64,000 nt of DNA, from positions 5,183 to 69,182 of the forward strand of contig JAKLFP010000001.1 of assembly GCA_022711115.1 (NCBI GenBank), given 5' to 3'. This DNA comes from Candidatus Omnitrophota bacterium (lineage in GTDB: Bacteria; Omnitrophota; Omnitrophia; Omnitrophales; Aquincolibacteriaceae). Numbering within the stretch: the stretch's first letter is position 1; every line of letters begins with the position of its first letter. The translations under genes were made by a program, and so were the position numbers. Positions 2,128 through 34,729 of the stretch are shown piece after piece. The notes under the pieces are model-generated. The model had not been told where the DNA came from and searched no databases. It saw only the letters and a list, made by a program, of their open reading frames with translations.

Positions 2128-5100
2128 TTAAAATTTACCTGTCATGCGTATAAAGGGTCCATGACTTTGAGAATTATTTGCATTTCTGAGGTCATCGTTA
2201 AAGTCCGTGAAATTATACCCTAATCCGAGCCGAACGTATTCATAAAATTCACGATCAATTTCTACCAACGCGCCGTGTTTGAGGTTGTCCGCCGAGGACG
2301 TTTGGAAAAGAATTCGGTATTCTATGGCCAGATCCCATTTTCGGGTGACATGAAAGTTGATGCGATTGGCGGACAAAAAGGTATTCACCCCAAGCATGTC
2401 TCCGACGGAAGTGCTCACCGACGATCGTTTAAAAGCCAGTTTTTCTACCAAACCGAAATAACGATTCAGGTCATAAGCGACGTCCATCGCAAAAATATGC
2501 GCGGCCTGATCAAATTGAAAGCCGTCATAATAGGAATTATCATATTGGGCATCACTCCCCAAATCCTGCAAATAGGTATAGCGTGCCAGCATATTCAGTT
2601 TATCAAGTTTGACCGGCCGTATCGCGAACCCGCTCGTCAATTCCACAAATGTCGCCGGACTATTATCCGGATTGTATTGCATCGTATCTCCTAAATTGAA
2701 TCTTGTCAGAAAAGCCACGTCTTCATTAATCTGATATTGCAAAGAGTTTTGCGTCACAAGCTGACTCATTTTGGGAAGAGTCTGATCCGCCCGAATTTCC
2801 ACGTAGCTCCGGGCCCGGAACTTCTTCCCAAGGGCATAAGCCACATTGCCACCAACTGTATTAAAGGTATTGGCGCGTGCCAGCGCGTTCTGGGCGGCAT
2901 CATTGATCAACTGCATATTCGCGTTATTCAAGTGGCGACGTTCAAATTTGCCGCCATAATCCCAATGATCGCCCGCCTTTCCTTCGTAACCTAAAATATC
3001 CGAAAAACCATCCTGATTCTGATAACTCGAATATTGCCGTTCGGAATAGAAACGGGAGTGTTCGCTCAGTGAGAAAGAGTTGCCGATCGCTGTGGAAAGG
3101 GTTTTATCTCCGATCCCGCGATCAAAGGAACGAATATTCGCGTAACTACGAACACCGTTCCCGTGTTGACGCTCAAACCCGAAATTGGTCGAATCCCCAA
3201 GCGGCCCGAACATTTGCTCCAAATAAGCAAACAGATTGTTGATGATTTCATACCGCACACCGCCGCCGAACTGTTGATCCGCCTTGCCGTCCAACACAGT
3301 CTGAACTTTCACATAAGGCAGCAGGCGGTCGTTGATATGGTAACCGACCTTGCCGGTCACACCGTTTTTGAAAGGAAGCTGATTGTCCATGGTAGGGGTG
3401 ATATTGCTGATGCTTGTCACAGGGTCGAGATTCCGCCGCTGGTATTCAATCTCTCCGAGATACTTGCCGTCATCGTAAACGATCTGGGCTGTGTGTGTTC
3501 TCATGTTTTGATAAGGCGCGGAATTATTGGTCACATTCAGCGGTTCCAGTTGACTGACCACACCCCCATCGTCAAAACGGTAACGGATTGCCAAACTATC
3601 GGTGAATTTATATTTGCTTGCAAGCCCGTATTTTTTTAGACCTTCCTGGCTTCGCATATTGTTATTAGAAAAACCGGGGTCCAGTTCCTGCACATAACCG
3701 GTCATCTCAAGATTTTTCACAGGCTTGGACTGAGCCTTGATCAGATACGCCTCGCTGAGATCTTTGGTGTGTCGACCATGCAGAGGACTGAGATTCGCAT
3801 AACTGATCCCGCCATCGTAAGAGACTGAATTGCTAAGCTGCTGATTGATCGATTGTGCGTATTCTGCTGTTATTTTGGTATTGCGGCCGAATTTAAGCGT
3901 GGCATCGACACCCCGCAAATTATAATCATCATTCCCGGGCCGGCTTTCATTGACCGCGGTAGCACCTATCTTGATATGGTCGCCCATATCCGTATAACCT
4001 CGAATACCTTGGTTCGTACTCGAATCCAGGCTAGGCCCCGGATCGTATTCATAATCCACGATCAAATAGACAGGATTGCCATTCAGCATGTCGGCAGTGG
4101 TCATCGTATCCGTCGCAGACACGGAAGAAAGAGGCCGGGTAAGAAGAATACGACCTTCTTCATAATTGATTTCATAATCCGCCCCAGGCTGCAGATCATA
4201 ACTGGAAATCGCCATGTTCTGGATCTTGTCGCGGATCTCCACACGGACTTTTTCACTGCCTTCGATCATATTGCGATTACGCGTGTAAAAAAGTGTTCCC
4301 CCTGTGGCATAAAGTTCATTATGGTCTGCCTGACGATCGGATTTGGCCGAAAAGACCTTGAAACCCCGCTTGGGATCCCCGTAGATATTCGTCCCAACCG
4401 TTTCATAATTGACCTTGAGACCGGAAAGTGTCCGGCTGTAAGTAGTAAGCTCGGTATCATTGAATTCGGTTTTATAACTTCCCCATTGAGCGTACGAACG
4501 GTCCATTTCTACAAGCAAGAAAAGCCGTTGTGCCGTGTCCCGAGCCTCATAGTCACGCGTGGAACCATCTCCGTAAATCGGGTAATATTTGTTCGGATCA
4601 AGGCTCGTGAAAAAATTACTGCGGTTGTCCGCAGTATCATAATGCGCCTTCACAAGAAATTTTCCCTTCAGCTTGCCTTTCAGGAAAAAGGCCATTCGCC
4701 CGTCCTGGCGGAACCCATTCCGGTAGACATCCGAATCCGCGGTCTCCATGGCCCCTTTTGCAAAATTCTCGCCAAATTGCTGCTCGCCCAACGCGACCAT
4801 GAAGAACGTGCTGTCCTTCACTTTGATTTTCTTATGAAAGGATGTCGTTTCTCCGGAAGGCGTGATCGCCGTAATTTTCGCTTCATATTCCCCAGGCTCC
4901 ACAAAAAATTCTTTCTGAAACATGCCATTTTCCGGATCAACCGTCACCGGGGTGTCATTGATTTTGATCACATTGTTGGGCTGGGTTTTCCCCTGAACCC
5001 GCACCACGGGCTTGGCAACGAGCGGGATGCTCTGTTTGCCGTCTTTAAAAATATTGAAATCGCCGACCGGCGGGATCTCGGGGTGATAATTCTTTTCCGC

Positions 5101-6873
5101 TCTTGCATCCAACTTTGAATATACCTCAAAAAATTTCAAGGGCGTCCAATCTTCACGGTTTTTGGAATCACGCACCTTGAGTTGGTAGGAATAAATCCCA
5201 GGAGGAATCAAAAGTCCGGCCTCAGTCATTCCCGACCAAACGACTTCCGAAGGCGGTTGCCCGACGCCATAACCGATCCACATTGGTTTTCCGAATTCAT
5301 CACGAATTTCAAGAGCCCATTTCTTGATGAATCTTCCATAATTATTATTAAAAGTGAACACCGGATCTTTTTCCAAAACACCAATGCCCAGCTTCACCAC
5401 AGAAGGCTCCATCTGAACATCCAGCGTCGGGCGGGAGACATCGACCCCTTGCGTCACCATGACCATCAGATCTTTTTTGAAGTTCTCAGGAATACCGGAC
5501 GGCGGCAAGAGTACCGCAAAATTCGCTTTATTCATAATTCCCGGCGTGGTTTTTACAAGATAGGCTTCTTCCGTAACGAATTTTGTACCTTCCGGCAGGC
5601 TGTGCCCGTCGATTTTAATCACATGCCGTCCCGGCGTGACCCCGGGAATATGATAACGCCCATGTTCATCCGTCACGATTCCAATCCCTTCTTCTGTGTA
5701 CAGTCTGACCCAAGGGACACCATCTTCACCGCAATCCTGAACGCTGTTCTGATTGAGGTCATTAAAGACCTTGCCGATGACCGTCCCTTGTTCAAATACA
5801 GGATCCCCTTCGACAGAAAATTGAGTCGTCACTTTTTGTGATAATTTTCCAGGTGTCAAAACATTATCAATGGTCCCTGCGTAATCCGCTTGGACAGAAA
5901 CGCCGTCCACGCTTGATTCCAACGCATACGTCCTACCCAGTTGTACGCCGCTTGAAACCAGCATCACAAAACTAACATGGATCTCTTGATTGGGAACCAT
6001 ATTCCCGACATCCACAACCAGAAAGCCATCGCGATAACCCGCAGGGAGTCCGTTCACTCTGACCGACTGATCCGCATAGTCAAAACCTTGCGGGATTTTA
6101 AACTTCATTTGAGTATTTTGATAAGTATTGCCTGACGCATTTTTAAAACGCGCGTTAATCCCCACAGCATCGCCCGGGGCAACATTTTTTTTCGAAGCAG
6201 ACACTGAAAGTCCTACCGGATTGATGCCGCCGATGGCTTGAGTGACGATTAAGTATCGATTTGCAACGGCCGCACCGGCACTCTTCCGTGTCTTAATCGT
6301 AAAAACAACCCGGTTTGTTTCCTCCGGCGCCGTACCGGCGATTGAAAAAGCCTGATAACCACCCCCCGGAGGCGCTTGGGCCGAGCGAATCGAAAAACCA
6401 TTATCCGACAAATTGATGGGACTGCCGATCAGCTGATCTGTGCCATCTTCATTTTTATGTTTGAATTCAATCGCAATATCACCTCTTCCGGATCCTTGAA
6501 TATTCGTTTCCGCGTAAACCGTAAATGTCACATAATCGCCTGGTTTCACATTGTCATAGGTCTGAAATGTAAAACGATCTGTTCCCGCAGCCGCATCAGG
6601 CAGTTGTAAAGCAGAGCCGTTCGGAAGTGTCGAAAAGGTCCCCGGCGGATTAGGTGCTGTCGTAATCCTTGTTGCCCCGTTGGTATTGTCCCAATTCGCC
6701 GCAGTACCGTTACCAATAGATTGGCTAAAATCGCCATTGCCAAGGACATTGGCATAAGCAAAAGGGGTGTTAGAGGTAAAAAGGAAAACAAGAAAGAGCG
6801 CAAGCGATAAGAAAATACGCGCTGCTTTGTTTTTTTCTTTTTTAGCTCCCCACATCATAGCTAACAATTTCAC
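2128..6873 (-). CDS. giant outer-membrane-type protein (1581 aa): N-terminal signal peptide, extracellular beta-sandwich/DUF11-like and SdrD-B/CarboxypepD_reg-like modules, C-terminal ~700-aa putative beta-barrel ending in Phe
   Basis: Single uninterrupted ORF. Signal peptide ...FLVFLFTSNTPFAYA/NV. Internal segment VIGKVFNDLNQNSVQDCGEDGVPWVRLYTEEGIGIVTDEHGRYHIPGV resembles a Cna-B/SdrD-B fold. The C-terminal half is rich in alternating aromatic/Gly/Asn/Tyr beta-strand patterns and ends ...FIRMTGKF (OMP-type terminal Phe). Confidence 0.7.
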   Translation of the reverse strand: MKLLAMMWGAKKEKNKAARIFLSLALFLVFLFTSNTPFAYANVLGNGDFSQSIGNGTAANWDNTNGATRITTAPNPPGTFSTLPNGSALQLPDAAAGTDRFTFQTYDNVKPGDYVTFTVYAETNIQGSGRGDIAIEFKHKNEDGTDQLIGSPINLSDNGFSIRSAQAPPGGGYQAFSIAGTAPEETNRVVFTIKTRKSAGAAVANRYLIVTQAIGGINPVGLSVSASKKNVAPGDAVGINARFKNASGNTYQNTQMKFKIPQGFDYADQSVRVNGLPAGYRDGFLVVDVGNMVPNQEIHVSFVMLVSSGVQLGRTYALESSVDGVSVQADYAGTIDNVLTPGKLSQKVTTQFSVEGDPVFEQGTVIGKVFNDLNQNSVQDCGEDGVPWVRLYTEEGIGIVTDEHGRYHIPGVTPGRHVIKIDGHSLPEGTKFVTEEAYLVKTTPGIMNKANFAVLLPPSGIPENFKKDLMVMVTQGVDVSRPTLDVQMEPSVVKLGIGVLEKDPVFTFNNNYGRFIKKWALEIRDEFGKPMWIGYGVGQPPSEVVWSGMTEAGLLIPPGIYSYQLKVRDSKNREDWTPLKFFEVYSKLDARAEKNYHPEIPPVGDFNIFKDGKQSIPLVAKPVVRVQGKTQPNNVIKINDTPVTVDPENGMFQKEFFVEPGEYEAKITAITPSGETTSFHKKIKVKDSTFFMVALGEQQFGENFAKGAMETADSDVYRNGFRQDGRMAFFLKGKLKGKFLVKAHYDTADNRSNFFTSLDPNKYYPIYGDGSTRDYEARDTAQRLFLLVEMDRSYAQWGSYKTEFNDTELTTYSRTLSGLKVNYETVGTNIYGDPKRGFKVFSAKSDRQADHNELYATGGTLFYTRNRNMIEGSEKVRVEIRDKIQNMAISSYDLQPGADYEINYEEGRILLTRPLSSVSATDTMTTADMLNGNPVYLIVDYEYDPGPSLDSSTNQGIRGYTDMGDHIKIGATAVNESRPGNDDYNLRGVDATLKFGRNTKITAEYAQSINQQLSNSVSYDGGISYANLSPLHGRHTKDLSEAYLIKAQSKPVKNLEMTGYVQELDPGFSNNNMRSQEGLKKYGLASKYKFTDSLAIRYRFDDGGVVSQLEPLNVTNNSAPYQNMRTHTAQIVYDDGKYLGEIEYQRRNLDPVTSISNITPTMDNQLPFKNGVTGKVGYHINDRLLPYVKVQTVLDGKADQQFGGGVRYEIINNLFAYLEQMFGPLGDSTNFGFERQHGNGVRSYANIRSFDRGIGDKTLSTAIGNSFSLSEHSRFYSERQYSSYQNQDGFSDILGYEGKAGDHWDYGGKFERRHLNNANMQLINDAAQNALARANTFNTVGGNVAYALGKKFRARSYVEIRADQTLPKMSQLVTQNSLQYQINEDVAFLTRFNLGDTMQYNPDNSPATFVELTSGFAIRPVKLDKLNMLARYTYLQDLGSDAQYDNSYYDGFQFDQAAHIFAMDVAYDLNRYFGLVEKLAFKRSSVSTSVGDMLGVNTFLSANRINFHVTRKWDLAIEYRILFQTSSADNLKHGALVEIDREFYEYVRLGLGYNFTDFNDDLRNANNSQSHGPFIRMTGKF

Positions 6874-6879
6874 CTCTTT

Positions 6880-8445
6880 TTAAGAACGATTGCTGGAAAT
6901 GTTAATTCCGAAACGGAGGTCATAATTCGGCGGTTTTGGATTCGGGTCACCATCCTGTTTGACCCGCTGGGCTCTTCCGATGCCGACCCACTCCGCAAAA
7001 ACCTTGGTCTTGAAAAGCCACTGATTATCCTTCCAGCGGTAGCACCTGAACGGCATCCAACGGATTCCCGGTGCTAAAAAGTATTGGTTCTGGTACCAGA
7101 AGGAAAATTCGCTGTTATTGGTGGCATCAAAACGAAGGTAAGGCATAAGAGCAAATTCATCATTGATGGGATTGTCAGGCAAAGGGATACCGGGCAATTT
7201 GATACCAACCATGACCGAGGAATTGGCAATGAGCGCATTAAAACTTTTTTCCGGACCGAAATTAGTTTTATCCACATAGTAATTCCCGTAATACTCCCCC
7301 CATACATACTGGCGAAGATAATCCGTAAATTTCTCGGGACGTCCCTCCACCAACGTCGGAAGTTCGATGCCCCATTCATAAAAAATATCAACACCCCAGA
7401 TAAGATCATAATCCTTGCTGCCCTGGATATCATTTTTGATGTTGTAGCGGTTACCGTACATAATGTAAGTGCGATAGCTGCGTATCCAATCGAGGATCGG
7501 AATACCGCCAAACGGGCGATAATTCTGGAGCCAAACATTACGGCGCAAGGGATACCATTCAAGACCGGCAAAAAGTTTTAAATTATTGCTGTAGGGAGTG
7601 GAGGTAGAATCCAGATTGATCGTGCTTTCCAAAAATGGATCGATCGTGTTCAGAGGAAAGCGGATCCCTTTGAATACAATGCGGTTCGTCCAGTATCCCA
7701 CTTGACTATCGTATTGATTTTCAGAAAGATTGGTGTTCCGCCAACTCGTTTCTCCGAAAGATTGCCAGAGGATCGGTTCTCCCGCGGGAGTCCCTTGGAA
7801 CGGTCCCCAGAGTTTTTCGCCGATATCCATCTGATCGGTAAATTTAAGGATGAGTTCTTCTTCTTTTTTGAACTGTGCCGGCGTTTTGATTTCGACCGGC
7901 GGCTCGGGTTCAACGGGGACATAGACCGGAGCTTCACGGACGAACTTTTCAAAATCACCGCCTTTTGCTTGAACCGATTTTTTCATGGAAGCAATTTCGG
8001 CTGTGGCTTCTCCCGTGGTCTTGTATGCCTTGTCCCCGATCCAATACAGCTCCGTCGTTTTACCGCTCGCGTCAGGAATAGGCAGCTGACGAATCTCAAC
8101 GCCCTCGTACGCGGCTGTTTTTAGATTTTTTTTGATGTATTGGTCGATCTCTTTGATGTCCTTCAAACCGGAAAGAAATCGGGATTTCAAGACCCCTCCG
8201 CCAAAGTCCGTTACAATGGAATATTCCGCTTTCTGTTGCCGGGACGGCGTCTTCAGGATGGAAAAACCGCGAACTTCGTTAATCTTATTGTCGAGTCTTT
8301 GATCGGACGGAGCAAAGAAGTATTCGGCGTAAGGGTTAGGAACGGGCGCTTCAGAAGAAATTCTTGCTTTTTCTTGAGCAAAGGCTGGGATGGCTATGGA
8401 TAGAAAGATGGCGATGAGAAAAATTAAATTTTTTTTAATTTTCAT
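6880..8445 (-). CDS. secreted/envelope protein (521 aa), signal peptide, Trp/Tyr-rich C-terminal half; unknown function
   Basis: ORF with signal peptide MKIKKNLIFLIAIFLSIAIPAFA/QE. Its stop lies 6 nt before the giant OMP start codon (tight coupling). The C-terminal region is W/Y/N rich with alternating hydrophobic residues. Confidence 0.55.
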   Translation of the reverse strand: MKIKKNLIFLIAIFLSIAIPAFAQEKARISSEAPVPNPYAEYFFAPSDQRLDNKINEVRGFSILKTPSRQQKAEYSIVTDFGGGVLKSRFLSGLKDIKEIDQYIKKNLKTAAYEGVEIRQLPIPDASGKTTELYWIGDKAYKTTGEATAEIASMKKSVQAKGGDFEKFVREAPVYVPVEPEPPVEIKTPAQFKKEEELILKFTDQMDIGEKLWGPFQGTPAGEPILWQSFGETSWRNTNLSENQYDSQVGYWTNRIVFKGIRFPLNTIDPFLESTINLDSTSTPYSNNLKLFAGLEWYPLRRNVWLQNYRPFGGIPILDWIRSYRTYIMYGNRYNIKNDIQGSKDYDLIWGVDIFYEWGIELPTLVEGRPEKFTDYLRQYVWGEYYGNYYVDKTNFGPEKSFNALIANSSVMVGIKLPGIPLPDNPINDEFALMPYLRFDATNNSEFSFWYQNQYFLAPGIRWMPFRCYRWKDNQWLFKTKVFAEWVGIGRAQRVKQDGDPNPKPPNYDLRFGINISSNRS

Positions 8446-24995: not shown

Positions 24996-27479
24996 TTATT
25001 CTATGACAAGTTCGCAAAGAATATCTTTTACATTACCTCGAAAGATTTTTTTAACTAGATTTTCAACCTGCGCCGGATCCGGTTTGAGTTCGGGAGATGA
25101 AAGCGCACCGGAAAGCAGTATCGGGATCGGCCCCAAGTGAGCTTTGGTTTCCTTGCTCAGGGATGAAGCCATGCCCGGTAAAATTTTTGAAGCTAGCTCG
25201 GCGGACAGAAAATTATCCGTTCGAAAATTCATAAGCCCGTCAAACCCCAAGGTTCCTTCTCCATCTATAATATAATCTCGGCTTTTAATCAGGAGATCGT
25301 CTGTTGAGATTTTTTCGTCAGAAACTTGCCAATGCAAGTTCATCGAATCAAACTCGCTCAAAGATGGCACCGCATCCTTAATGCGGCTTAAGGGTTCGAT
25401 CGCTGCAATCACGTTTTTGAGATCAAAAGATTGAAACCGACCTTTTGTCACCATCAACTCGCCTTGTCCCTTAAGCGATTTGGCCCCAATGTTCTTGTCC
25501 CACCCTGCTCCTTCAAGTTTGCCTTTCAGCGAAAGTGTCCCTTCAAGAATTTTCAAAGACGCATCCTGACGGCTCAAAAAAAGCCCCAAATTCAAGCCTT
25601 GGATTTCACCTTCACCATAATAACTGGGTTCTTTGCCGTGATAATGGATCCATCCCTTGAGGTTCGCCTGGCCTTCATAGCTTTCGAATTTCAACGAAGT
25701 GATCGCCGCTTTCTTGTCGCTATATTCAATCTCTGTCGAAAGATTCTTCAACGAACGGTCCCCCGGGAAAAGATTCCCCAGGGATTCCTTCACCTGATCA
25801 TAAATATCCGGCTCGGACTTTTTAGATTTATCCTGAAAAATCGCGGCAACCGATTGCCATGCTTCAAATGGCTTGAGTTCTTCGGAAGTCAACTTTCCTT
25901 CCGCTTTTATTTTTTCAAAATCCCCGGTAATTTTGAGATCCGCCATAAGCCTTGACCCTCCCAGATCAAACTGCATCTGACGAGCCTCAAACATCAGCGG
26001 GCTATAATCGATGGACAACACCGCGTTGCTTATCCCTTTGCCTTCCGAAGTGGTTAAAGCACCCTGTTCGATGGTCACATTCAAAATGCGTTCGGCCTTT
26101 TCCAGTTTAAGAAGGTCCCCTTTCCAATCCGCAAGTATTTTTGCATCCCCTGCCAGTTTGTAGTTAGCAAGCGCGGGAATATATTCTTCCCATCCAGTCA
26201 TGGAAAATTTATTTGTAATAAGATTGAGTTGCCCTCTTCCCGTTTTTATATTGAGATCCGCCAAAGTCCCTTTTAAACTCATGTCCTGGAACTTTAATGA
26301 AAAATCGCCTGATATCGTTTCGCCTTTTTGGACCAAAACATCCATGCTCAGATCAAGCGGAACATCCTTGGGTTTGAAAAAATATTGCCCATAAGTAAGG
26401 AGCGTCTGGGCAAGAGCCCAATTGAGATGGACTGATAAATGATCCAGCGTCCCTTCCAAGGACAGGGCCCATTTGTTCGGACCCGAAAATCCAATATGAA
26501 ACGGGAGAGCTTTCTCAAGTCTTGGCCAATATTTCAACAGATTTTCAAGCACCATTTGGGATCCCGTCAGATGCATGCCTGCAATCTCTCCCGTACTGAG
26601 CTTCAATCCCCCGTTCGCTTCAAAATCGCCAAAAGGCATTTTGATTTTCATTTTTTGCAACTTCAGTTCCTCTGTATTATGATTCCAATGTGCCGAAACA
26701 TCCCACTCCATATCGAGAGAAGGCGGTATGACCCATTCTTTTTCCTGCAAAACTTCATAAGTCAGGCCTTTGCCGCTGCCGCTCGCTTTCAGCTCCAGAA
26801 AAGCTTCATTCGCTTTTTTGTGAATCTCCATAAGTGTATTGATCTGACCGGCTTTGAATAAAAAAGAACGTTTGGGGTCATAATTGTTCTCTTTCGCGAC
26901 ATGGTTCATGGAAAGTTCTTTTATTTCCGCAATAAAATGCCCCACTGCTTTGAGCCAATCCCATTTTTCGATTGAATCTAAAATAGCATACCCTTTCACT
27001 GAAAAAACCTTGGATTGACCGTTAACGCTGCTCACAAAATTCAAGGGGATAGGCATCTTCGGACGAATCGCTCCTATCTGAAGAGAGAAATTTTCCAATT
27101 TGACTGGGCTCATGAAGCTTGAGAATGGCAGCGAGAAGTTGGCTTCCCCCGACTGAATAAAAAAAGCGACGGGATCGGCCCGGCCCAAGAAAAGCGGCAG
27201 AATGCTAAAATCAAAGCTTATTTTCTCCGCTTCCACCTTAAGCGACTCATTGACAAAAGTAAGTTGCGGACTTTCAAGAATAAGCTGAGGCTGCGGGAAG
27301 TAAGCTACTTGAAAACCTTGATAGCGGAGCGTACCTTCGGTGAGCGTTTGGATCTTCTGGACAAGCATCTCCTGTATTTTGGGAGACGGAAGCAAGCGCT
27401 TTGTCTGAAACCAAAGACCCAAGATAAAAAACGCGGCAACAAGAACAATGAGGATCAGAAATTGATAGCGTTTTTTCAT
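24996..27479 (-). CDS. AsmA-family-like large envelope protein (827 aa, N-terminal membrane anchor)
   Basis: N-terminal TM QFLILIVLVAAFFILGLWF followed by a long, predicted periplasmic beta-rich region. Size and architecture resemble AsmA/TamB-like proteins. Family assignment is by resemblance only. Confidence 0.5.
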   Translation of the reverse strand: MKKRYQFLILIVLVAAFFILGLWFQTKRLLPSPKIQEMLVQKIQTLTEGTLRYQGFQVAYFPQPQLILESPQLTFVNESLKVEAEKISFDFSILPLFLGRADPVAFFIQSGEANFSLPFSSFMSPVKLENFSLQIGAIRPKMPIPLNFVSSVNGQSKVFSVKGYAILDSIEKWDWLKAVGHFIAEIKELSMNHVAKENNYDPKRSFLFKAGQINTLMEIHKKANEAFLELKASGSGKGLTYEVLQEKEWVIPPSLDMEWDVSAHWNHNTEELKLQKMKIKMPFGDFEANGGLKLSTGEIAGMHLTGSQMVLENLLKYWPRLEKALPFHIGFSGPNKWALSLEGTLDHLSVHLNWALAQTLLTYGQYFFKPKDVPLDLSMDVLVQKGETISGDFSLKFQDMSLKGTLADLNIKTGRGQLNLITNKFSMTGWEEYIPALANYKLAGDAKILADWKGDLLKLEKAERILNVTIEQGALTTSEGKGISNAVLSIDYSPLMFEARQMQFDLGGSRLMADLKITGDFEKIKAEGKLTSEELKPFEAWQSVAAIFQDKSKKSEPDIYDQVKESLGNLFPGDRSLKNLSTEIEYSDKKAAITSLKFESYEGQANLKGWIHYHGKEPSYYGEGEIQGLNLGLFLSRQDASLKILEGTLSLKGKLEGAGWDKNIGAKSLKGQGELMVTKGRFQSFDLKNVIAAIEPLSRIKDAVPSLSEFDSMNLHWQVSDEKISTDDLLIKSRDYIIDGEGTLGFDGLMNFRTDNFLSAELASKILPGMASSLSKETKAHLGPIPILLSGALSSPELKPDPAQVENLVKKIFRGNVKDILCELVIE

Positions 27480-28069: not shown

Positions 28070-28501
28070 TTATTTAACCTCAATTAAAGTGGGTTTTTGC
28101 GCCTTATTCCGATATTCGGCTCCCGCATAAACGCGAAGCCTTTTGAGCATCACATCACCGTTGCGCGTCTTGGGAAGCATACGGGAAACCGCGCGCATAA
28201 TAATTTCAGTCGGTTTTTTTTCCATAAGTTCTTCATAGGTATAAGTTTTCAAGCCCCCGGGAAAACCCGTAAAATGCTTATAGATCTTATCCTCTTTCTT
28301 TTTCCCTGTCACAAGAACTTTCTCGGCGTTAATGATGATCACTTGATCCCCTGTGAGCATATCCTTGGCGAAGCAGGTCTTCCCCTTACCGATAAGAAGG
28401 GTTGCCACACGCGTTGCGAGGCGCCCCAGGGTTTTCCCCGTGGCGTCAATCAAATAGCTCTTACGATTAATGTCTTTGTCCTTTGGGATAAAAGTCTTCA
28501 T
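28070..28501 (-). CDS. rplM: 50S ribosomal protein L13
   Basis: MKTFIPKDKDINRKSYLIDATGKTLGRLATRVA... Start trimmed to the MKTF codon. Lies 2 nt upstream of rpsI. Confidence 0.9.
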   Translation of the reverse strand: MKTFIPKDKDINRKSYLIDATGKTLGRLATRVATLLIGKGKTCFAKDMLTGDQVIIINAEKVLVTGKKKEDKIYKHFTGFPGGLKTYTYEELMEKKPTEIIMRAVSRMLPKTRNGDVMLKRLRVYAGAEYRNKAQKPTLIEVK

Positions 28502-28751
28502 AAATCTCTCTTCTATGATCAATATCAATTAGGGGAAACTGTATAGGAGGAAAATACTTTCCTGCAGCTTAGATTTCCCGAAAAGTTGACAAAGTATACC
28601 AAAGCCCTTGGAACCTGTCAAAACTATTTGGAAAAATCTTTACAACTTGATTCTCTGCTTATAAAGGAGTAAATTCCTATGTTTTCTTTTCTTGATTCTG
28701 ATACGCTAGTAAAATAATTTTTATATTATCAGAAATCGTATTAACCTCATT

Positions 28752-31700
28752 TTATTCCAACGGCACATAATACAATCCGCGTGTGTTCACGATCATGCGG
28801 CCCACCGTAGCGCTGGGATCATCCACCACCAAAATAATCGCCTTGATCTGGGTCGCGTCAAATCCAGCAATCCCCACACTCTGCAGCACGGCGTTAGAGA
28901 TCGCGATCCTTCCGTTCGTCAGATTGACTCGCACCGTCACCTTCCGTCCATTAGCGTCTTCCACCTCAACCTTGTAATACCTCGCACCCGTCACATTCAC
29001 ATCCAACACTATTGGCGCTGCCGCCGCGTTGAAATAGGCTCCCGGGGAAAATAACATCATCGCTGCAGCCCAACGCTGATTCCCCCCGGCCGCTAAATTA
29101 AAATCCATCACAAATTGATTCGCTGACGGCTGCACGAAACTCGCCACCGTCGTATGCGCCACGGCCTCAATCGGAGAAACGCTCGGCTGCAACGCAATGA
29201 AATCCGTCAGCGGCGCTGTTGTTGTCCAGGAAATCACGGGAATATACGGATACCCTCCCAACCGGACTTGCAACTGCCCTGTTTTTAAACTGATATTGTT
29301 ATTCTCGACAACGAAATTTACATTTTTGACATGTGCCAAATCCACCCCGGTTAAAGCGTTGATCGGTATACGGTAAAATTGCTCCGTTATTCCAACGTTC
29401 AACAGGTAAATCATAGCGCGACCGCCGTTGGCGTCTTCAACCTGGAACTTGATCCGACCGGTCCCTGCCGAAAGTTTCAACCCTACGACAATCGAGGAGA
29501 TACTTCGTAAATCTGCTGCCTCAACCGCCGGGGTCCCAAAATCATCAAAACTCGACAGCAAAAGAGACCAACTTCCCGCGGTTGTCACATTATATTGCAG
29601 CGCTGACACCGATGAAGAACTCTGAAACACACTGGACTGCCCGGCTCCTCCCCCCTCGATAGCAGTTACACTTCGAATTCCTGGAAGCGTGCTGATATTG
29701 CTAATGCCCAGTGTCGGATCTGTTGTTACGGTTGGTTCGTAATACAACCCACGGGTATTGACCGTCAGTGTCCCCGTTGTCGCGCTTGGATCATCCACCA
29801 CCAAAATAATCGCCTTGATCTGGGTCGCGTCAAATCCAGCAATCCCCACACTCTGCAGCACGGCGTTAGAGATCGCGATCCTTCCGTTCGTCAGATTGAC
29901 TCGCACCGTCACCTTCCGTCCATTAGCGTCTTCCACCTCAACCTTGTAATACCTCGCACCCGTCACATTCACATCCAACACTATTGGCGCTGCCGCCGCG
30001 TTGAAATAGGCTCCCGGGGAAAATAACAGCATCCCCGCCGCCCATCGCTGTGACCCTCCGTTCGTCAGGTTGTAATTCAGCGAAAATTGACTGCTGCTTG
30101 ACTGTGTCAAACTCGTGACCGTATTGGCCGGACTCGGCTCGATCTCGGACACCGATGGCCGCAACCCGCTGAAATCCGTCAGTGGTGCTGTCGTCGGAGG
30201 AACCAATGGAACATAAGCTAGCCCCTTGGTCTCTACCGCCACCTGACCGCTTGCCCCCATGTGCGCACGATCCGCGACAAATAAAATTTGAGCCACTCTC
30301 GTCGCATCAATCCCCATGCCCGCGAAATTAAGAGCGTAATTCTGAGTCGTCCCGCTCAGGTTTAAATAATAGACCGCCACCCGCCCGGTCGTGTCTTTCA
30401 CCTCGACCTTCAACTGCTTCCCCGCAGGACCGTTCGCCGCCAGCACTAGCCCCGAACTCAAATTCATCGCCGTACCAATCCAAACATTGTTATTGAAATA
30501 ACCGTTCCCCGCAGAGCTAAACACAAAATCGTCCGAGTCCGCTAACGTGTAATTCATCGCGAAATTGCGAGACGAGGTCTGCGTGACCGCAATCGTCCCG
30601 TTCGCAGTCGCCGTCCCCACCGCCCCTGACCCGCTGCTTAAAACCGGAACGTTCGGAAGCTGTGTAATCAGGCTCTGATTGTAAACCGAACCGTTCACAA
30701 CTGGCGTATACGGATACTTTCCAAACCGGACTTCTAAAGCTCCTATCTTGTTCGTCACTTTGTGGGTTTCTAAAATAAAGTTGATATTCTTTACATGCGA
30801 GAAATCAAAAGACGTAAATAGCGTGCGCAACGCACCGATCGGAATCTGGACAAATTTCTCCGTCGTGGTGATATCGGTGGCTATCACCTTCGCCCGGTGC
30901 CCGCTCGCGTCTTCAAACTCTACATAAACCGATCCGCTTCCACTTGCGAAGCGTAATCCCGCTATCAAGGTTGTTGCCGTGCTTAGATCATAACTCTCAA
31001 CCCCCGCGGTCCCGAAATTATCAAAGGATGAAATGCTCCCCGCATAACTTCCCGCCTGACTCAGGTTATAATTCAACCGGAACCGGTCGGCGTCGTACTG
31101 TACCAAATTCGCAGCCCCGGCCGGATTGGAAAATACCGTCAAACTCGGGAAAGAGTAACTCGACGGAACCGCAGTCCCCGGAACCCCTATGATCACCGGA
31201 ATGTAATACATCCCGTTCACTTCCACGTTCACCTGGCCCGTGGCCTGCATATGACTTCGATCGGCAATAAACGCGACCTGAGCCACTCTCGTCGCATCAA
31301 TCCCAAGCCCTGTCAGATTGATCGTGTAATTTTGCTTCGTTCCGTTCAAAGCCAAATACACCACCGCTTGCTGGCCGTTCACGTCTTTGATCTCCACTTT
31401 AAGCTGCTGGCCCAAAGCGCCTTGGGCCGCCAAAGTCAAACCAGCACTCAAATTCACGGTCTGGCCATTGAAATGCGTGTCATCGGTAAAATAGCCATTA
31501 CTTAAATATGCGAACACAAAATCGTCCGCGTCCGCCAAGTTATAGTTAAAGCTGAAATCTCGCGGCGAGGTCTGCGTGAGCGTGATCGTCCCATTCGCTA
31601 TCCCGTCCACGGACCCGCTCCCGGAATTCAAAATCGGCTGATTCGCAAGTTGCGTGATCAGCGAGGGATTGTAGGTCGTACCCGAAATGCTCAAAAAAAG

Positions 31701-34544
31701 TCTCTGTAAGGTAGCCAGATCGACACGAATCGTGCCATTGATCACGGCGATTTTCCCTGCGGATTCATAGGTAATGGATTGAAGTGCTATTCCGTTTAAC
31801 GCCAACTTAGCCGCAGGATCACTGATCCGCTGCAAATAAGTCGTATGAGGAACAGGCGTGGGATACAAGGGTCCTTCAATATCATAAATGACCGTTGACC
31901 CATCCGGCGAGACATCATAAACGCCTGTATATCCACCATAAGGATCCATCCGCGTTGCGATATTCTGCACCTGGCCAGTGACTAGATTCATCAGCTGAAG
32001 CGTGTACCGGCTATATCCCCCCACACGTTCATAGAGGGATTGAAACGCATAATTTTTATTTGATGTTGCGAGCGTCCAGGTCGCCTTCCAGAAACCTGTC
32101 GCGGTCTCATATTCATAAACATGCATCGCGGTAACAATGACCGCTATCTTTTTGCCGTCTTGCGCGGTCACAAATTTCAAAGCTTCGATCTTTTCACCCG
32201 TAATGGATGTCCGAGTAATGCCTCCGCCAGACAGGAGCGCCGGCAATGATTGAATATAAATCACATCCGTGGGCGGAATGGGAGAGGTGGTGCGTCCGTA
32301 ACCGTCATAAATGATCTGTTGGCCATCCGGAGAGACATCAAAGCTTCCGGCTTTTTCAAAAGCCCAGACCCAATAATCTTTATTCGTTGTCAGGTCCTTG
32401 AGCGTAATCGTACCGCCATCGACCTTAAACGCATAATTCGCATTCGATGCCGCCCGCGTCCAGCCGGCCGGCAACGGCGGCATCAGATAAAGTCCTCCTG
32501 TCGTACGAATGTCGACTCGCCCCGTTTTATTGGGCAGATTGGCATTTTCAAAAATAAAGGCCATTTGAACAATATGGGTCAGATCCAGGGCCGGAAAAAA
32601 TTGCCGGATCATGGAGATCGAAATCGATCTTGTGCTGTAAGTCGACGCCAGCCCGCTCATCCAGAAAAAGGCAGAATGACCGGTAGCATCCTTGAGCTCG
32701 AATTTCAGACAACGAGCAGTCCCCGAACAGGCTGCCGTCGTCTTCATGTCAAAACTAACCGCACTCCAATTGCTGATGTCCTTCGAGCCTCCAGAAAGTG
32801 ATGCGAAATTAATGACCGCTCCCGAAAAACTTCCCACCGGCACAACATTATAATTAATAGAAAATTCCATCGGAGAGCTCTGGCTTACAACCGGCATCGT
32901 AGTCCCACTGCCAAAAACATCAAGAAATGGCGCCGGCACAAGTTTTACGGTCGTAAGATCGATATGATAAGTCCAGGCAGGATTCGCTGTGTCCACCAAC
33001 ACTTCATTCCCTGACATCTGAATCACATCCGGCCGATTCGCAGGAGAGGCATTGATAAACACGTATTGCTTCAAAGCTCCTTCCTGCAGTGCTTGAATAC
33101 AAACATTGATCCCGCCGCCTGCTACCCGCTCAAGATAGATGATCTTTGTTTCATCCGGCGTAATCACCGGGTATCCCCAAAAATCGTTCTGCCTTGTCTG
33201 CACCACATCCACAATATAGATATGGCCAGTCACAAGATTTTGAACTTTCAGTGTCGTGGTCCCGGTCATAGGATCCTGTGGATTGGAAAAGCCATACTGA
33301 TACGCATATTTCGTATTCGATGGCACATACGTCCAACCGGCCAGAGCAATCGGATCCGGATAGGCTCCTTTGCCGAGAGCTGGAGAACCGGGCTGAAGAC
33401 GATAATTCCCCTGCGCAGCATTCACAAACTTCGGATCCGCAATTATATTTCCCTGGATCCGGGTCTCGACGCTGGGCGGCAATGCGCTGCCGTAATAGCT
33501 TCCTTTTTCCGTATTGTTGAAGAAAATATTTCCTTCTACGGCCGCAAAACCGCGGCTAGGTGTTTGTCCCCAGCAAAATTCATAAATGGAAGCATAGGTA
33601 CTGCCGGTAATAATGTTGTTGCGAACCACGGGTTTGACACCGTTAAGCAAATTGATCCCGATACGGCTGTTCACGATCGTATTATTTTTGATGACCGCTC
33701 CGGAGGCTGATGTGAGAGGATGCTGGATCGAAAGGTTATTATTCAGGAAAAGATTATATTCGATGAGGGCATTTTGACCGGACCGCAGATAAATTCCGTA
33801 ATTTGCATTATTTCTTATGTTCGTTCCGGAAATAATAACATTATCTCCTTCGACTCGAATAGCGCTGAACGGCGTGCCCTGATAGGCAACCCCGCCAGTG
33901 ATGGTAAGGTTTCCAATCCTGTTATTACCGCTGGCAACAATAATATCTTCATACCGACCCTGGCCGCTGATAATGGTTGTTTCTCTATTTTCACCCTGAA
34001 GATTAACACCCGGTTTCAAAACAAGCGATTGAAGATAAATACCGGCATCAAGGAGAACAACATCCCCTGCTTGCGCTTGATTAATGGCTGTCTGGATGGA
34101 TTCGCCTGCACGCACTCGGATGATACTGAATTTCGCCACCGAATTTGCATCCAAAACATTATCCTTCTCTTGCGCAGGAACAAACGCAAGAGAAGGATTG
34201 CCGTCCTGCTGGAGTGGTGTTGTCGATGCTGAGGAAACAGATAAAGGATTAGGATTCTGAAATTCGAAACCCGAAGGAATTTGTGTTTGCAATTTCGGAG
34301 CGGTTGTGTTCGTCGTTTGATTCGCATCAAATTTCACAACAGGAACTAATTCCTGGCGCTCATTTTGTGTCAATGTCGCTATAGCTGCAACGGAAGTGGG
34401 CACAGGAATCCCTTGAAAAATAAAAAAGGCGGTTACAATAATTGCAACCGCCTTCTGGGGTAATTTATGATTTCGATTATTTTTTGTGTTATTTGTGTTA
34501 CATGACTTCTGCCATTTTCTTTTCTGCGAGTCGAGGGTAGCCAT
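28752..34544 (-). CDS. giant modular exoprotein (1930 aa): N-terminal signal-anchor, right-handed parallel beta-helix (PbH1/pectate-lyase-like) domain, PD40/TolB-like SPDG repeats, then six ~160-aa beta-sandwich modules of three sequence types
   Basis: Beta-helix block IQTAINQAQAGDVVLLDAGIY...NNTIVNSRIGINLL...RNNIITGS...GNIFFNN. SPDG..IIYD PD40-like repeats. Repeated modules A (FDNFGTAGVE.../FDDFGTPAVE...), B (SLITQL...SGSGS...TQTS...) and C (LFSPGAYFNAAAAPIVLDVNVTGARYYKVEVEDANGRK...). SD AGGAGGTG precedes the ATG. Confidence 0.7.
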   Translation of the reverse strand: MATLDSQKRKWQKSCNTNNTKNNRNHKLPQKAVAIIVTAFFIFQGIPVPTSVAAIATLTQNERQELVPVVKFDANQTTNTTAPKLQTQIPSGFEFQNPNPLSVSSASTTPLQQDGNPSLAFVPAQEKDNVLDANSVAKFSIIRVRAGESIQTAINQAQAGDVVLLDAGIYLQSLVLKPGVNLQGENRETTIISGQGRYEDIIVASGNNRIGNLTITGGVAYQGTPFSAIRVEGDNVIISGTNIRNNANYGIYLRSGQNALIEYNLFLNNNLSIQHPLTSASGAVIKNNTIVNSRIGINLLNGVKPVVRNNIITGSTYASIYEFCWGQTPSRGFAAVEGNIFFNNTEKGSYYGSALPPSVETRIQGNIIADPKFVNAAQGNYRLQPGSPALGKGAYPDPIALAGWTYVPSNTKYAYQYGFSNPQDPMTGTTTLKVQNLVTGHIYIVDVVQTRQNDFWGYPVITPDETKIIYLERVAGGGINVCIQALQEGALKQYVFINASPANRPDVIQMSGNEVLVDTANPAWTYHIDLTTVKLVPAPFLDVFGSGTTMPVVSQSSPMEFSINYNVVPVGSFSGAVINFASLSGGSKDISNWSAVSFDMKTTAACSGTARCLKFELKDATGHSAFFWMSGLASTYSTRSISISMIRQFFPALDLTHIVQMAFIFENANLPNKTGRVDIRTTGGLYLMPPLPAGWTRAASNANYAFKVDGGTITLKDLTTNKDYWVWAFEKAGSFDVSPDGQQIIYDGYGRTTSPIPPTDVIYIQSLPALLSGGGITRTSITGEKIEALKFVTAQDGKKIAVIVTAMHVYEYETATGFWKATWTLATSNKNYAFQSLYERVGGYSRYTLQLMNLVTGQVQNIATRMDPYGGYTGVYDVSPDGSTVIYDIEGPLYPTPVPHTTYLQRISDPAAKLALNGIALQSITYESAGKIAVINGTIRVDLATLQRLFLSISGTTYNPSLITQLANQPILNSGSGSVDGIANGTITLTQTSPRDFSFNYNLADADDFVFAYLSNGYFTDDTHFNGQTVNLSAGLTLAAQGALGQQLKVEIKDVNGQQAVVYLALNGTKQNYTINLTGLGIDATRVAQVAFIADRSHMQATGQVNVEVNGMYYIPVIIGVPGTAVPSSYSFPSLTVFSNPAGAANLVQYDADRFRLNYNLSQAGSYAGSISSFDNFGTAGVESYDLSTATTLIAGLRFASGSGSVYVEFEDASGHRAKVIATDITTTEKFVQIPIGALRTLFTSFDFSHVKNINFILETHKVTNKIGALEVRFGKYPYTPVVNGSVYNQSLITQLPNVPVLSSGSGAVGTATANGTIAVTQTSSRNFAMNYTLADSDDFVFSSAGNGYFNNNVWIGTAMNLSSGLVLAANGPAGKQLKVEVKDTTGRVAVYYLNLSGTTQNYALNFAGMGIDATRVAQILFVADRAHMGASGQVAVETKGLAYVPLVPPTTAPLTDFSGLRPSVSEIEPSPANTVTSLTQSSSSQFSLNYNLTNGGSQRWAAGMLLFSPGAYFNAAAAPIVLDVNVTGARYYKVEVEDANGRKVTVRVNLTNGRIAISNAVLQSVGIAGFDATQIKAIILVVDDPSATTGTLTVNTRGLYYEPTVTTDPTLGISNISTLPGIRSVTAIEGGGAGQSSVFQSSSSVSALQYNVTTAGSWSLLLSSFDDFGTPAVEAADLRSISSIVVGLKLSAGTGRIKFQVEDANGGRAMIYLLNVGITEQFYRIPINALTGVDLAHVKNVNFVVENNNISLKTGQLQVRLGGYPYIPVISWTTTAPLTDFIALQPSVSPIEAVAHTTVASFVQPSANQFVMDFNLAAGGNQRWAAAMMLFSPGAYFNAAAAPIVLDVNVTGARYYKVEVEDANGRKVTVRVNLTNGRIAISNAVLQSVGIAGFDATQIKAIILVVDDPSATVGRMIVNTRGLYYVPLE
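28817..29068. repeat. copy 1 (extreme C-terminal module) of a 252-bp segment 100% identical to 29780-30031
   Basis: Direct comparison of the two stretches. Identical from GGATCATCCACCACCAAAATAATCG through GGCTCCCGGGGAAAATAACA. Flanking DNA is only ~60-70% identical. The track also shows the same antisense ORF (VALGSSTTKIIALIWV...) twice. Confidence 0.9.
29780..30031. repeat. copy 2 of the 252-bp perfect repeat (internal module, 963 bp upstream of copy 1)
   Basis: See copy 1. Encodes the identical 84 aa LFSPGAYFNAAAAP...VVDDPSAT in both modules. Confidence 0.9.
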
Positions 34545-34653
34545 GACCGCACCTCCTGTTTTTAGTTTTCAAAGAAATTTATCTTTCTTTTTAGCTCCCC
34601 CGAACACTTAACACTTTTCAAAAAACCTTAAAAAGTATTCTAAAAAAAAGATT

Positions 34654-34682
34654 TTCTGAAATTAATATTAACACATTTTAAT
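34654..34682 (-). promoter_or_regulatory. promoter of the giant exoprotein gene: TTGACA-17 nt-AATATT, followed by a ~100-nt 5' UTR
   Basis: Reverse complement reads TTGACAATTTATTAAAATGTGTTAATATT. Perfect -35, AT-rich -10. Confidence 0.5.
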
Positions 34683-34729
34683 AAATTGTCAAGCCTCCGC
34701 TTCTTTTTGCTAGGCGCAATCAGAAAGCA

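Follow-up and report, generated by a model that had tools for sequence, protein, structure and literature searches.

What kind of protein is encoded by the largest gene in a 64,000-nucleotide stretch of Candidatus Omnitrophota DNA (GenBank assembly GCA_022711115.1, contig JAKLFP010000001.1, positions 5,183 to 69,182; the whole stretch is called the window below), lying as it does among housekeeping genes, and where in or around the cell does it work? Omnitrophota are abundant, mostly uncultured nanobacteria that are thought to live attached to other microbes or to prey on them. The gene is the longest open reading frame (ORF) of the window, with 1930 residues against 1581 for the runner-up, and sits directly upstream of rplM and rpsI, with truA, asd, leuB and glgA upstream of it; size and position are as stated in an earlier inspection of the letters alone (the sequence-only reading), which left function and secretion route open, a caution that still stands. 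With moderate confidence, and on the basis of sequence comparison and structural models, we favour the proposal that the product is a Sec-exported, ~200-kDa multivalent glycan-recognition protein, adhesive or polysaccharide-handling, that would act on or outside the cell. This reading is suggested by a c-region resembling signal peptidase I sites, a sugar-related beta-helix, repeated modules with a fold resembling that of carbohydrate-binding modules (CBMs), the turnover of these modules among relatives and the Omnitrophota origin of named family members.

The gene and its domain organization

The ORF starts with ATG and corresponds to a real gene:

28752..34544, minus strand: coding sequence, from the ORF call and an identical database protein

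Its product, predicted at 206 kDa (~200 kDa in the mature form, pI 5.8), is 100% identical to P0001, annotated at NCBI as 'MAG TPA: right-handed parallel beta-helix repeat-containing protein [Candidatus Omnitrophota bacterium]', and the identical gene is also called on the 380-kb Joint Genome Institute (JGI) metagenome contig Ga0116241_10000053. A domain map was derived from fragment-versus-whole BLAST comparisons, motif positions and iterated hidden Markov models (HMMs). The entire chain can be assigned to modules, in the order signal peptide, linker, beta-helix, P1, J0, P2, P3 and A1-B1-A2-C1-B2-C2, with P standing for the PD40-like modules and J, A, B and C for the jelly-rolls (residue ranges, aa, in brackets):

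34383..34544, minus strand: putative signal peptide (aa 1-54), the sole hydrophobic segment, with a basic n-region, the h-region AVAIIVTAFFIFQGI and the c-region PVPTSVAA
34158..34382, minus strand: conserved post-signal linker (aa 55-129), with the motif IPSGxAxQNxNPLS
33345..34157, minus strand: right-handed parallel beta-helix (aa 130-400), CASH/NosD-like, from Pfam PF13229 and PF05048
32934..33347, minus strand: PD40-like module P1 (aa 400-537), from self-similarity and a module HMM (E 9e-33)
32475..32933, minus strand: jelly-roll J0 (aa ~538-690; HMM envelope 521-689, E 2e-40), which aligns with the other six
31689..32474, minus strand: PD40-like modules P2 and P3 (aa 691-952; 691-817 and 819-952; HMM E 1e-35 and 7e-47)
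31197..31688, minus strand: jelly-roll A1 (aa 953-1116), from an AlphaFold2 (AF2) model and its Foldseek match to CBM11
30702..31196, minus strand: jelly-roll B1 (aa 1117-1281), from BLAST self-comparison and HMM
30204..30701, minus strand: jelly-roll A2 (aa 1282-1447), 58-62% identical to A1
29733..30203, minus strand: jelly-roll C1 (aa 1448-1604), holding the repeat copy 29740-30039
29238..29732, minus strand: jelly-roll B2 (aa 1605-1769), ~40% identical to B1
28755..29237, minus strand: jelly-roll C2 (aa 1770-1930), holding the repeat copy 28768-29067, at which the protein terminates

Pfam and NCBIfam detect the beta-helix only, leaving ~1,500 residues dark to both libraries. Domain searches had been proposed in the sequence-only reading as the check on its account, and the one part that they place in any curated family is the beta-helix.

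The beta-helix and the possibility of an enzyme

The parallel beta-helix announced earlier is borne out by Pfam Beta_helix (PF13229), which passes its threshold at 47 bits versus a cut-off of 25.9 (E 2.8e-12, aa 227-372), as does Pfam NosD (PF05048; 32.5 versus 23.6 bits, E 7.5e-8); TIGR03804 (para_beta_helix) stays just below its cut-off (19.0 versus 19.45), and a precomputed match to the Pel9A-like PF22842 is weak. When a profile of the domain, built from 13 homologues (alignment A5), is run against the PDB sequences, the solved structures retrieved are carbohydrate-active beta-helix proteins only, namely the AlgE4 C5-epimerase (2pyg, E 3.6e-5), a PL6 alginate lyase (E 0.003, cap motif only), a pectinesterase and a xylosidase. 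The matches lie mainly in the generic N-terminal cap (profile positions 18-76), where the protein shares with AlgE4 and PL6 the motif GESIQxAIxxAxxGDTVxVxxGxY. Taken together, these profile comparisons support a CASH-type, sugar-related domain.

An identity with NosD itself was considered and rejected, as the specific family model TIGR04247 gives 58.6 bits versus a cut-off of 300, there are no nos genes (and hence no nos operon) in the window, and only the generic Pfam NosD model is matched. A sequence search of the whole protein against the PDB gave no meaningful match. A scan of GTDB genomes with the beta-helix found one close relative, an Omnitrophota metagenome-assembled genome (MAG) at 51% identity, and in other phyla distant generic beta-helix matches only, which are uninformative on the taxonomic range of the jelly-rolls.

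The protein might then be primarily an enzyme, its beta-helix acting as a lyase, hydrolase, epimerase or esterase on a polysaccharide and its jelly-rolls as substrate-targeting CBMs; the candidate substrates, to be degraded or remodelled, would be the cell-wall glycan of a prey or host, or an extracellular polysaccharide. Besides the exclusive retrieval of carbohydrate-active enzymes and the Pel9A-like match, this is favoured by motifs strongly conserved in the 13 homologues, with an invariant E193 in IYEFxW and Q145/P147 in AIQxP, and by a layout, beta-helix plus CBM array, that is common in carbohydrate-active enzymes (CAZymes); cell-wall degradation has moreover been proposed for Omnitrophota giant proteins (bioRxiv 10.1101/2023.11.21.568195). 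On the other hand, the likeness to CASH-type enzymes is mostly confined to the cap, no catalytic family model was reached, no catalytic residues were mapped and no catalytic signature was identified, and with seven CBM-like and three propeller-like modules the non-catalytic share of the protein greatly exceeds that of typical enzymes. A mainly enzymatic role is unlikely in our estimation.

A family of ~160-residue jelly-rolls with a CBM-like fold

Glycan recognition is further suggested by the seven mutually homologous jelly-rolls of ~160 residues (module HMM E 2e-40 to 3e-64). Previously, six beta-sandwich modules of types A, B and C had been counted; the three pairs hold (C1 and C2 being 73-93% identical), but the number is seven, since J0 had been missed, and all of them are homologous. 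The profile used below has 164 positions and derives from 26 copies in five proteins (alignment A1). The AF2 model of the jelly-roll obtained from this alignment shows 11 strands, with a predicted local distance difference test score (pLDDT) of 96.7 and a predicted template-modelling score (pTM) of 0.91. Its best Foldseek matches in the PDB are the CBM11 entries 6r3m and 1v0a (C. thermocellum Lic26A-Cel5E; E 2e-6, template-modelling score (TM) 0.51-0.53, 9% identity), followed by FlaA1 from the flagellar sheath of a spirochaete and by one chain from a complex I assembly intermediate, in our reading a CIA30-type assembly factor; lower in the ranking come CBM29, CBM4, CBM61 and CBM-type domains found in agarases and in a mannanase. 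The PDB fold matches also include the tail proteins of CBA120 (TSP4) and N4, and among the predicted viral structures of BFVD the module resembles distal-tail, host-specificity, minor-tail and esterase proteins (E 4e-5 to 1e-3, TM up to 0.58), as well as one 'CenC-like carbohydrate-binding' protein.

Concerning known systems, the module agrees with the CBM11 and CBM4/CBM29/CBM61/CIA30 jelly-rolls in fold and size (11 strands, ~160 residues), and with CBMs in general in being an appended, repeated unit of exported proteins. Unlike CBM11, to which its identity is 9-13%, it gives no Pfam match in any of the 26 copies, CBM models included, and no NCBIfam model either, so that it falls outside CBM11 (PF03425) and the likeness exists at the level of fold only; the profile likewise finds no match among the PDB sequences. 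Its tandem arrays, with up to 23 copies per protein, go far beyond those of typical CAZymes. With phage tail and receptor-binding proteins it shares CBM-like jelly-roll domains, used there to recognise cell-surface glycans, but again the likeness is confined to the fold, and the present gene is chromosomal and syntenic, amid housekeeping genes and outside any phage context.

When 1.84 billion cluster representatives are searched exhaustively with hmmsearch, the jelly-roll is found in 607 proteins at E <= 1e-3, 195 of them at E <= 1e-30. They reach 7110 residues in length and mostly start with signal peptides. Five of the six members with a source name come from Candidatus Omnitrophota, the sixth being labelled only 'bacterium'. 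At the level of sequence, the jelly-roll is a genuine, sizeable, uncurated family. Two of its members, P0017 and P0021 (MBI3307289.1 and MBI3307290.1; 4459 and 3024 residues, with 18 and 16 jelly-rolls), belong to one Omnitrophota MAG and are likely tandem paralogues, given their consecutive accession numbers and a longest contig, of 34 kb, that is common to both. In another, P0004 (3038 residues), the jelly-roll at aa 2316-2570 is split by an inserted domain of ~120 residues (ISGIHYVSGTGLRLTIEDPAGVDSYNIQYSDNGGETWQ...), which also occurs near the N-terminus of that protein.

PD40-like modules

The second repeated module, a unit of ~130 residues with the motif DVSPDGxxVIY, is present in three copies. 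The AF2 model of the P2-P3 tandem (33 sequences; pLDDT 91.5, pTM 0.83) shows 22 strands, which we read as approximately six four-stranded blades, or about three per module. There are 395 Foldseek matches at E <= 1e-3, and the top PDB matches, among those listed, are all chains or complexes that contain beta-propellers (E 1e-7 to 1e-5), such as eIF3-containing initiation complexes, TolB (13-17% identity), G-beta, Atg18, DCAF1, DPP4 and a trilobed protease. The superposition on canonical propellers is nevertheless limited to TM 0.30-0.37 with a root-mean-square deviation of 12-17 A, and Pfam PD40 (PF07676) scores P2-P3 at 14 bits versus a threshold of 20.9, matching only 3 of the 33 module sequences (best E 1e-3), so that these modules fall outside PF07676. 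The PD40-like propeller repeats described before are in this way retained as three modules at the fold level, without PD40 membership or a close superposition on a propeller.

What the modules have in common with PD40/TolB propellers is the motif and the four-stranded antiparallel blades; what sets them apart is that they form independent units in one, two or four copies, which would not make a single closed ring of 6-8 blades. Thirteen copies were found in six first-round homologues, and of the 147 best representatives with jelly-rolls, 22 have further ones. Copy numbers are one in P0006 and P0007, two in P0002, three in the present protein and four in P0003, and this variation indicates that the unit folds on its own.

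Export, sorting and the possibility of a membrane anchor

The whole protein has a single hydrophobic segment (aa ~31-55). Its N-terminus consists of a basic n-region of 31 residues, an h-region of ~15 residues and a Pro-containing c-region with small residues at positions -3 and -1. Such an organization is more likely that of a cleavable Sec signal peptide than that of the signal-anchor suggested by the sequence-only reading, a view from which we depart here; cleavage is read by eye from the A-x-A-like c-region. Should the segment stay uncleaved, the protein would be tethered to the inner membrane and have a periplasmic role, such as the maintenance of the envelope (compare TolB) or the handling of a cofactor (compare NosD). 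The long n-region and the single hydrophobic segment would be compatible with such a role, as would the PD40-like units, which recall periplasmic TolB, the Pfam NosD match and an AsmA-like envelope gene that neighbours the gene in three genomes. According to a 2026 preprint (10.64898/2026.06.07.730766), 94% of long Omnitrophota proteins have transmembrane (TM) helices or a signal peptide, and the four longest are anchored in the inner membrane. Against it stand the short h-region with the c-region that follows, the failure of the NosD family model and the lack of nos genes in the window mentioned above, the poor fit of a 200-kDa rod of 11 modules to a nanobacterial periplasm, and the shuffling of modules between relatives, which favours an exposed over a housekeeping role. 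We regard a periplasmic anchored protein as very unlikely.

Once across the inner membrane, the protein would follow a route for which no familiar signal is present. Regular-expression scans find no LPxTG, PEP, GGxGxD (RTX), lipobox or twin-arginine (Tat) motif, and no Pfam or NCBIfam model for a type IX secretion system (T9SS) C-terminal domain, PEP-CTERM, a barrel, two-partner secretion (TPS) or an autotransporter is matched at E <= 1. The C-terminus (...GLYYVPLE*) coincides with the end of C2, so the earlier remark that no obvious C-terminal sorting signal is present holds, and the protein falls outside the Gram-negative surface-sorting classes covered by these scans.

Parts of the N-terminus are conserved. 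The motif FFIF[SQN]GIPxPTSFA is common to ~13 related proteins, and P90, S91, L101 and S102 are invariant in 13 aligned N-termini (alignment A7), the linker motif being found in P0001-P0009, P0033, P0078 and P0171. Signal peptide and a LEQANAQ-like stretch ending in IPSGxAxQNxNPLS thus make up a cassette that is shared by ~14 proteins with differing passengers. When its profile (A7) was run against 5.8 billion proteins, a database size at which sensitivity for a 100-residue leader is poor, the only new match was P0171, a 162-residue fragment of the same kind, so that a sorting signal of wide distribution is not supported. A bolder proposal combines the cassette, as a lineage-specific sorting or anchoring device of a novel Omnitrophota display route, with a major, highly expressed and repeatedly re-tailored coat or host-attachment fibre encoded at this chromosomal position and with jelly-roll and PD40-like modules new to the databases; as a whole we hold it to be distinctly improbable.

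Among the ~40 window ORFs scanned there are no components of type I, II, V or IX secretion systems, SecDF being the only secretion component; the genes are housekeeping ones (lysine and arginine biosynthesis, leuB, asd, glgA, recJ, tgt, queA, a uvrD-like gene and SecDF). Downstream of rpsI, an 827-residue AsmA/YhdP-like protein is encoded at 24996-27479 on the minus strand, an arrangement kept in the orthologous locus L013. Proteins of the AsmA type are associated with lipid homeostasis of the outer membrane, and the gene is consistent with a diderm envelope in the Omnitrophota source organism. Elsewhere in the window, two adjacent minus-strand ORFs, 2128-6873 (1581 residues) and 6880-8445 (521 residues), have clear N-terminal signal peptides, no Pfam match at E <= 1e-5 and neither jelly-roll nor P module, and from their sequences look like further 'dark' exported proteins.

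A fixed locus with rapid module turnover

Positional orthologues occupy the asd-truA-[gene]-rplM-rpsI(-asmA-rnc) slot in three other genomes: P0002 (74% identity), P0003 (55%) and P0005 (~66%, referring to the shared parts). Their architectures differ. Where the 1930-residue protein has the beta-helix, one P module, one J, two P modules and six jelly-rolls, P0002 has the beta-helix, two P modules and five jelly-rolls; P0003 the beta-helix, four P modules, ~150 unassigned residues and six jelly-rolls; and P0005 ~540 other residues, the beta-helix, no P modules and four jelly-rolls. The corresponding large beta-helix genes lie at 2699-7162 in locus L012, 117-6290 in L013 and 2362-7080 in L017; together with the window, four related genomes have such a gene in the slot, each with its own module set. 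More distant homologues that share leader and beta-helix are found at other loci and carry GLUG, Big_13, S8 peptidase or RHS parts. Judged from these sequences, a gene for a rapidly evolving surface protein keeps a constant place on the chromosome, the truA|rplM interval, beside ribosomal-protein genes. Within the gene, a direct repeat of 300 nt with 93% DNA identity, its copies 972 nt apart (28768-29067 in C2 and 29740-30039 in C1), indicates recent duplication or gene conversion, and hence that module turnover is ongoing.

The shared slot with differing architectures points to an inherited locus with rapid module turnover, and not to recent transfer, in agreement with what had been proposed from the letters alone. 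That the gene is recently acquired foreign cargo, inserted beside the ribosomal-protein genes, could be argued from its base composition and from a preprint (10.64898/2026.06.07.730766) according to which hypervariable regions in the genomes of Omnitrophota contain ribosomal-protein operons. The GC excess noticed by eye is real but small, 0.499 versus a mean of ~0.475 for the other window genes, and inside their range, housekeeping neighbours included. It had been ascribed to a Gly/Ala/Thr-rich composition, which accounts for the raised GC content at second codon positions (GC2; 0.445 versus 0.376 +/- 0.036), the protein being rich in Ala, Gly, Thr and Ser, but not for that at third positions (GC3) in modules A1, A2, C1 and C2, which is ~0.64 versus a window mean of 0.505 +/- 0.044 and cannot be explained by amino-acid composition; gene conversion among these modules is one possibility. 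On neither side of the gene is there an integrase, a transposase or a repeat boundary, and the synteny, with three positional orthologues at 55-74% identity in the conserved parts, largely refutes horizontal transfer, which we take to be exceedingly improbable.

Expression signals and the possibility of a coat

The gene has its own predicted promoter and leader:

34665..34692, minus strand: sigma-70-type promoter, TTGACA, 16-nt spacer and TG-extended TAATAT (10/12 in a consensus scan)
34545..34658, minus strand: 5' leader of ~113 nt; an AU-rich stem-loop of 13 bp lies close to the 5' end

The claim of an own strong promoter is therefore upheld, with its -35 and the TGTTAAT -10 region kept in L012, the closest orthologue locus; the leader, put at ~100 nt before, exists as well, although its length is nearer 113 nt. 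Its first ~45 nt are kept in L012 and partly in L013, its predicted fold is modestly structured (z = -2.18 versus shuffles), and an AGGAGG Shine-Dalgarno sequence lies at 34552-34557, seven bases before the ATG. An Rfam scan of gene and flanks gave no family above threshold; a sub-threshold match to L20_leader inside the ORF (28 bits versus a cut-off of 58.7) was judged to be chance.

Downstream, no convincing intrinsic terminator follows the gene in the window, and a GC-rich hairpin with a T-run lies beyond the stop codon of the L012 orthologue. Translation of rplM starts from the ATG at 28501, whereas the ORF tool had listed a TTG at 28528, and rplM has its own promoter (TTGACA-17-TATACT with TG, 28621..28593), which is invariant across the window, L012 and L013. 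From the two own promoters and the lack of a convincing terminator it follows that the gene is a transcription unit of its own, with read-through possible. The ~90-nt leader of rplM (region 28502-28621, minus strand) is well conserved across the same three loci; it matched no Rfam family at E <= 1, and its conservation probably marks an L13/S9 autoregulatory leader.

Two further structures lie inside the ORF. A terminator-like hairpin with a U-run at 34424-34456, minus strand (codons ~30-41; 15-bp stem, folding free energy -23.6 kcal/mol, z = -4.86), overlaps both the DNA encoding the h-region of the signal peptide and the sub-threshold L20_leader match. L012 alone retains it, with two substitutions that are compatible with wobble pairing but change the amino acids encoded, and it is absent from the more distant orthologues at L013, L015, L016 and L017; judged by its sequence, it could be an attenuator, a pause site or chance. 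The terminator scan also picked up a second, near-perfect inverted repeat of 14-15 bp (ATCCTTCTCTTGCG...CGCAAGAGAAGGAT) at 34161-34198, minus strand, in the linker-coding region; at this position the linker of P0002 differs in sequence.

The near-consensus conserved promoter, the long leader with its 5' stem-loop and the strong Shine-Dalgarno sequence bear on the further alternative of a structural coat, i.e. an S-layer-like self-assembling protein in which jelly-rolls and propeller-like units would be lattice or spacer elements and not lectins. Envelope proteins that are made in abundance typically have such features. The presence of FlaA1 among the fold matches and the poor conservation of ligand-site residues speak for a coat as well, and the cultured relative Velamenicoccus is described as a 'coated coccus' (PMC10066038). 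Yet no SLH or other cell-wall anchoring domain is found with Pfam or NCBIfam, the number and order of modules vary greatly among orthologues, which fits a defined lattice poorly, and family members are present as many paralogues per genome, such as the adjacent P0017 and P0021. A coat is in our judgement quite unlikely.

A proposed model for glycan recognition

The favoured reading, a multivalent glycan-recognition protein, can be put as a sequence of steps. A near-consensus promoter would yield an mRNA with a leader of ~113 nt and a strong Shine-Dalgarno sequence; the signal peptide would carry the chain over the inner membrane and be cleaved, probably after ..SVA/A. The mature protein would then be a string of independently folding, beta-rich modules, in which the CASH-type beta-helix may serve as a specific 'head' that binds or modifies a polysaccharide, while the three PD40-like units of three blades and the seven galactose-binding-domain-like jelly-rolls may add reach and avidity. 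The carbohydrate surface targeted could be the envelope of a host or prey cell, or an extracellular polysaccharide. Between relatives the module set would be rebuilt by duplication, deletion and swapping within the fixed truA|rplM slot, which is the pattern expected of a protein facing a variable partner. Large surface proteins of Omnitrophota have been proposed as adhesins to host cells (PMC10066038; bioRxiv 10.1101/2023.11.21.568195).

Several observations weigh against this account. The function of the beta-helix cannot be assigned from its matches, which do not separate a binder from an enzyme. The likeness of the jelly-rolls to CBMs is moderate (TM ~0.5, 9-13% identity), and the same fold is found in non-lectin proteins, i.e. 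FlaA1 and the complex I assembly chain. Only P18, D102 and G105 are invariant across the jelly-roll types, so no common ligand site is evident and many of the copies may be mere spacers. Finally, there is no outer-membrane secretion partner in the window, and the extracellular location is thus assumed. What the sequences and models establish is the ORF with its domain map and folds, the family distribution, the synteny and the absence of known sorting signals; cleavage of the signal peptide, an extracellular location, carbohydrate binding and an adhesive role are what we infer.

Regarding the phylum, the designation 'giant' is valid in a relative sense, as Omnitrophota proteins of 10,000 to 147,000 residues are documented (bioRxiv 10.1101/2023.11.21.568195; 10.64898/2026.06.07.730766). 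Like these giant proteins (Archaeovorin, Dockerin, tandem-repeat scaffold), the present protein comes from Omnitrophota, begins with an export signal and consists largely of repeated modules in long arrays, of lectin, glucanase or adhesion type, and for the giants a role as adhesin or cell-surface polymer has been proposed (bioRxiv 10.1101/2023.11.21.568195; 10.64898/2026.06.07.730766; PMC10066038). The giant-gene class, as defined in bioRxiv 10.1101/2023.11.21.568195, comprises products of >10,000-30,000 residues with many TM helices, SecA-DEAD and/or dockerin/C39 and an adjacent cluster resembling type II secretion systems and type IV pili (T2SS/T4P-like). The 1930-residue protein lies outside this class: it is 5 to 75 times shorter, has one hydrophobic segment and housekeeping neighbours, lacks SecA-DEAD, dockerin, C39 and S8 domains, and its gene is not beside a T2SS/T4P-like cluster. 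Its jelly-roll and PD40-like families are also not among the modules catalogued for giant proteins in the accessible parts of these reports.

Most likely, then, the protein belongs to the modular exported carbohydrate-binding surface proteins of Omnitrophota, for which it would be typical and not surprising; current ideas are not overturned, and detail is filled in. The gene offers a compact, tractable example of the Omnitrophota surface-protein toolkit, at 1.9 kaa (thousand residues) versus 10-150 kaa for the giants. What is gained is a high-confidence model and a profile of a ~160-residue jelly-roll that is absent from Pfam and NCBIfam and present in ~600 protein clusters, together with a second uncurated module, the PD40-like unit. 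The truA|rplM slot, with its differently assembled versions, constitutes a natural system in which module shuffling at a putative host-interaction locus can be followed, and should particular glycans prove to be bound by the modules, the surface chemistry of the partner would be indicated.

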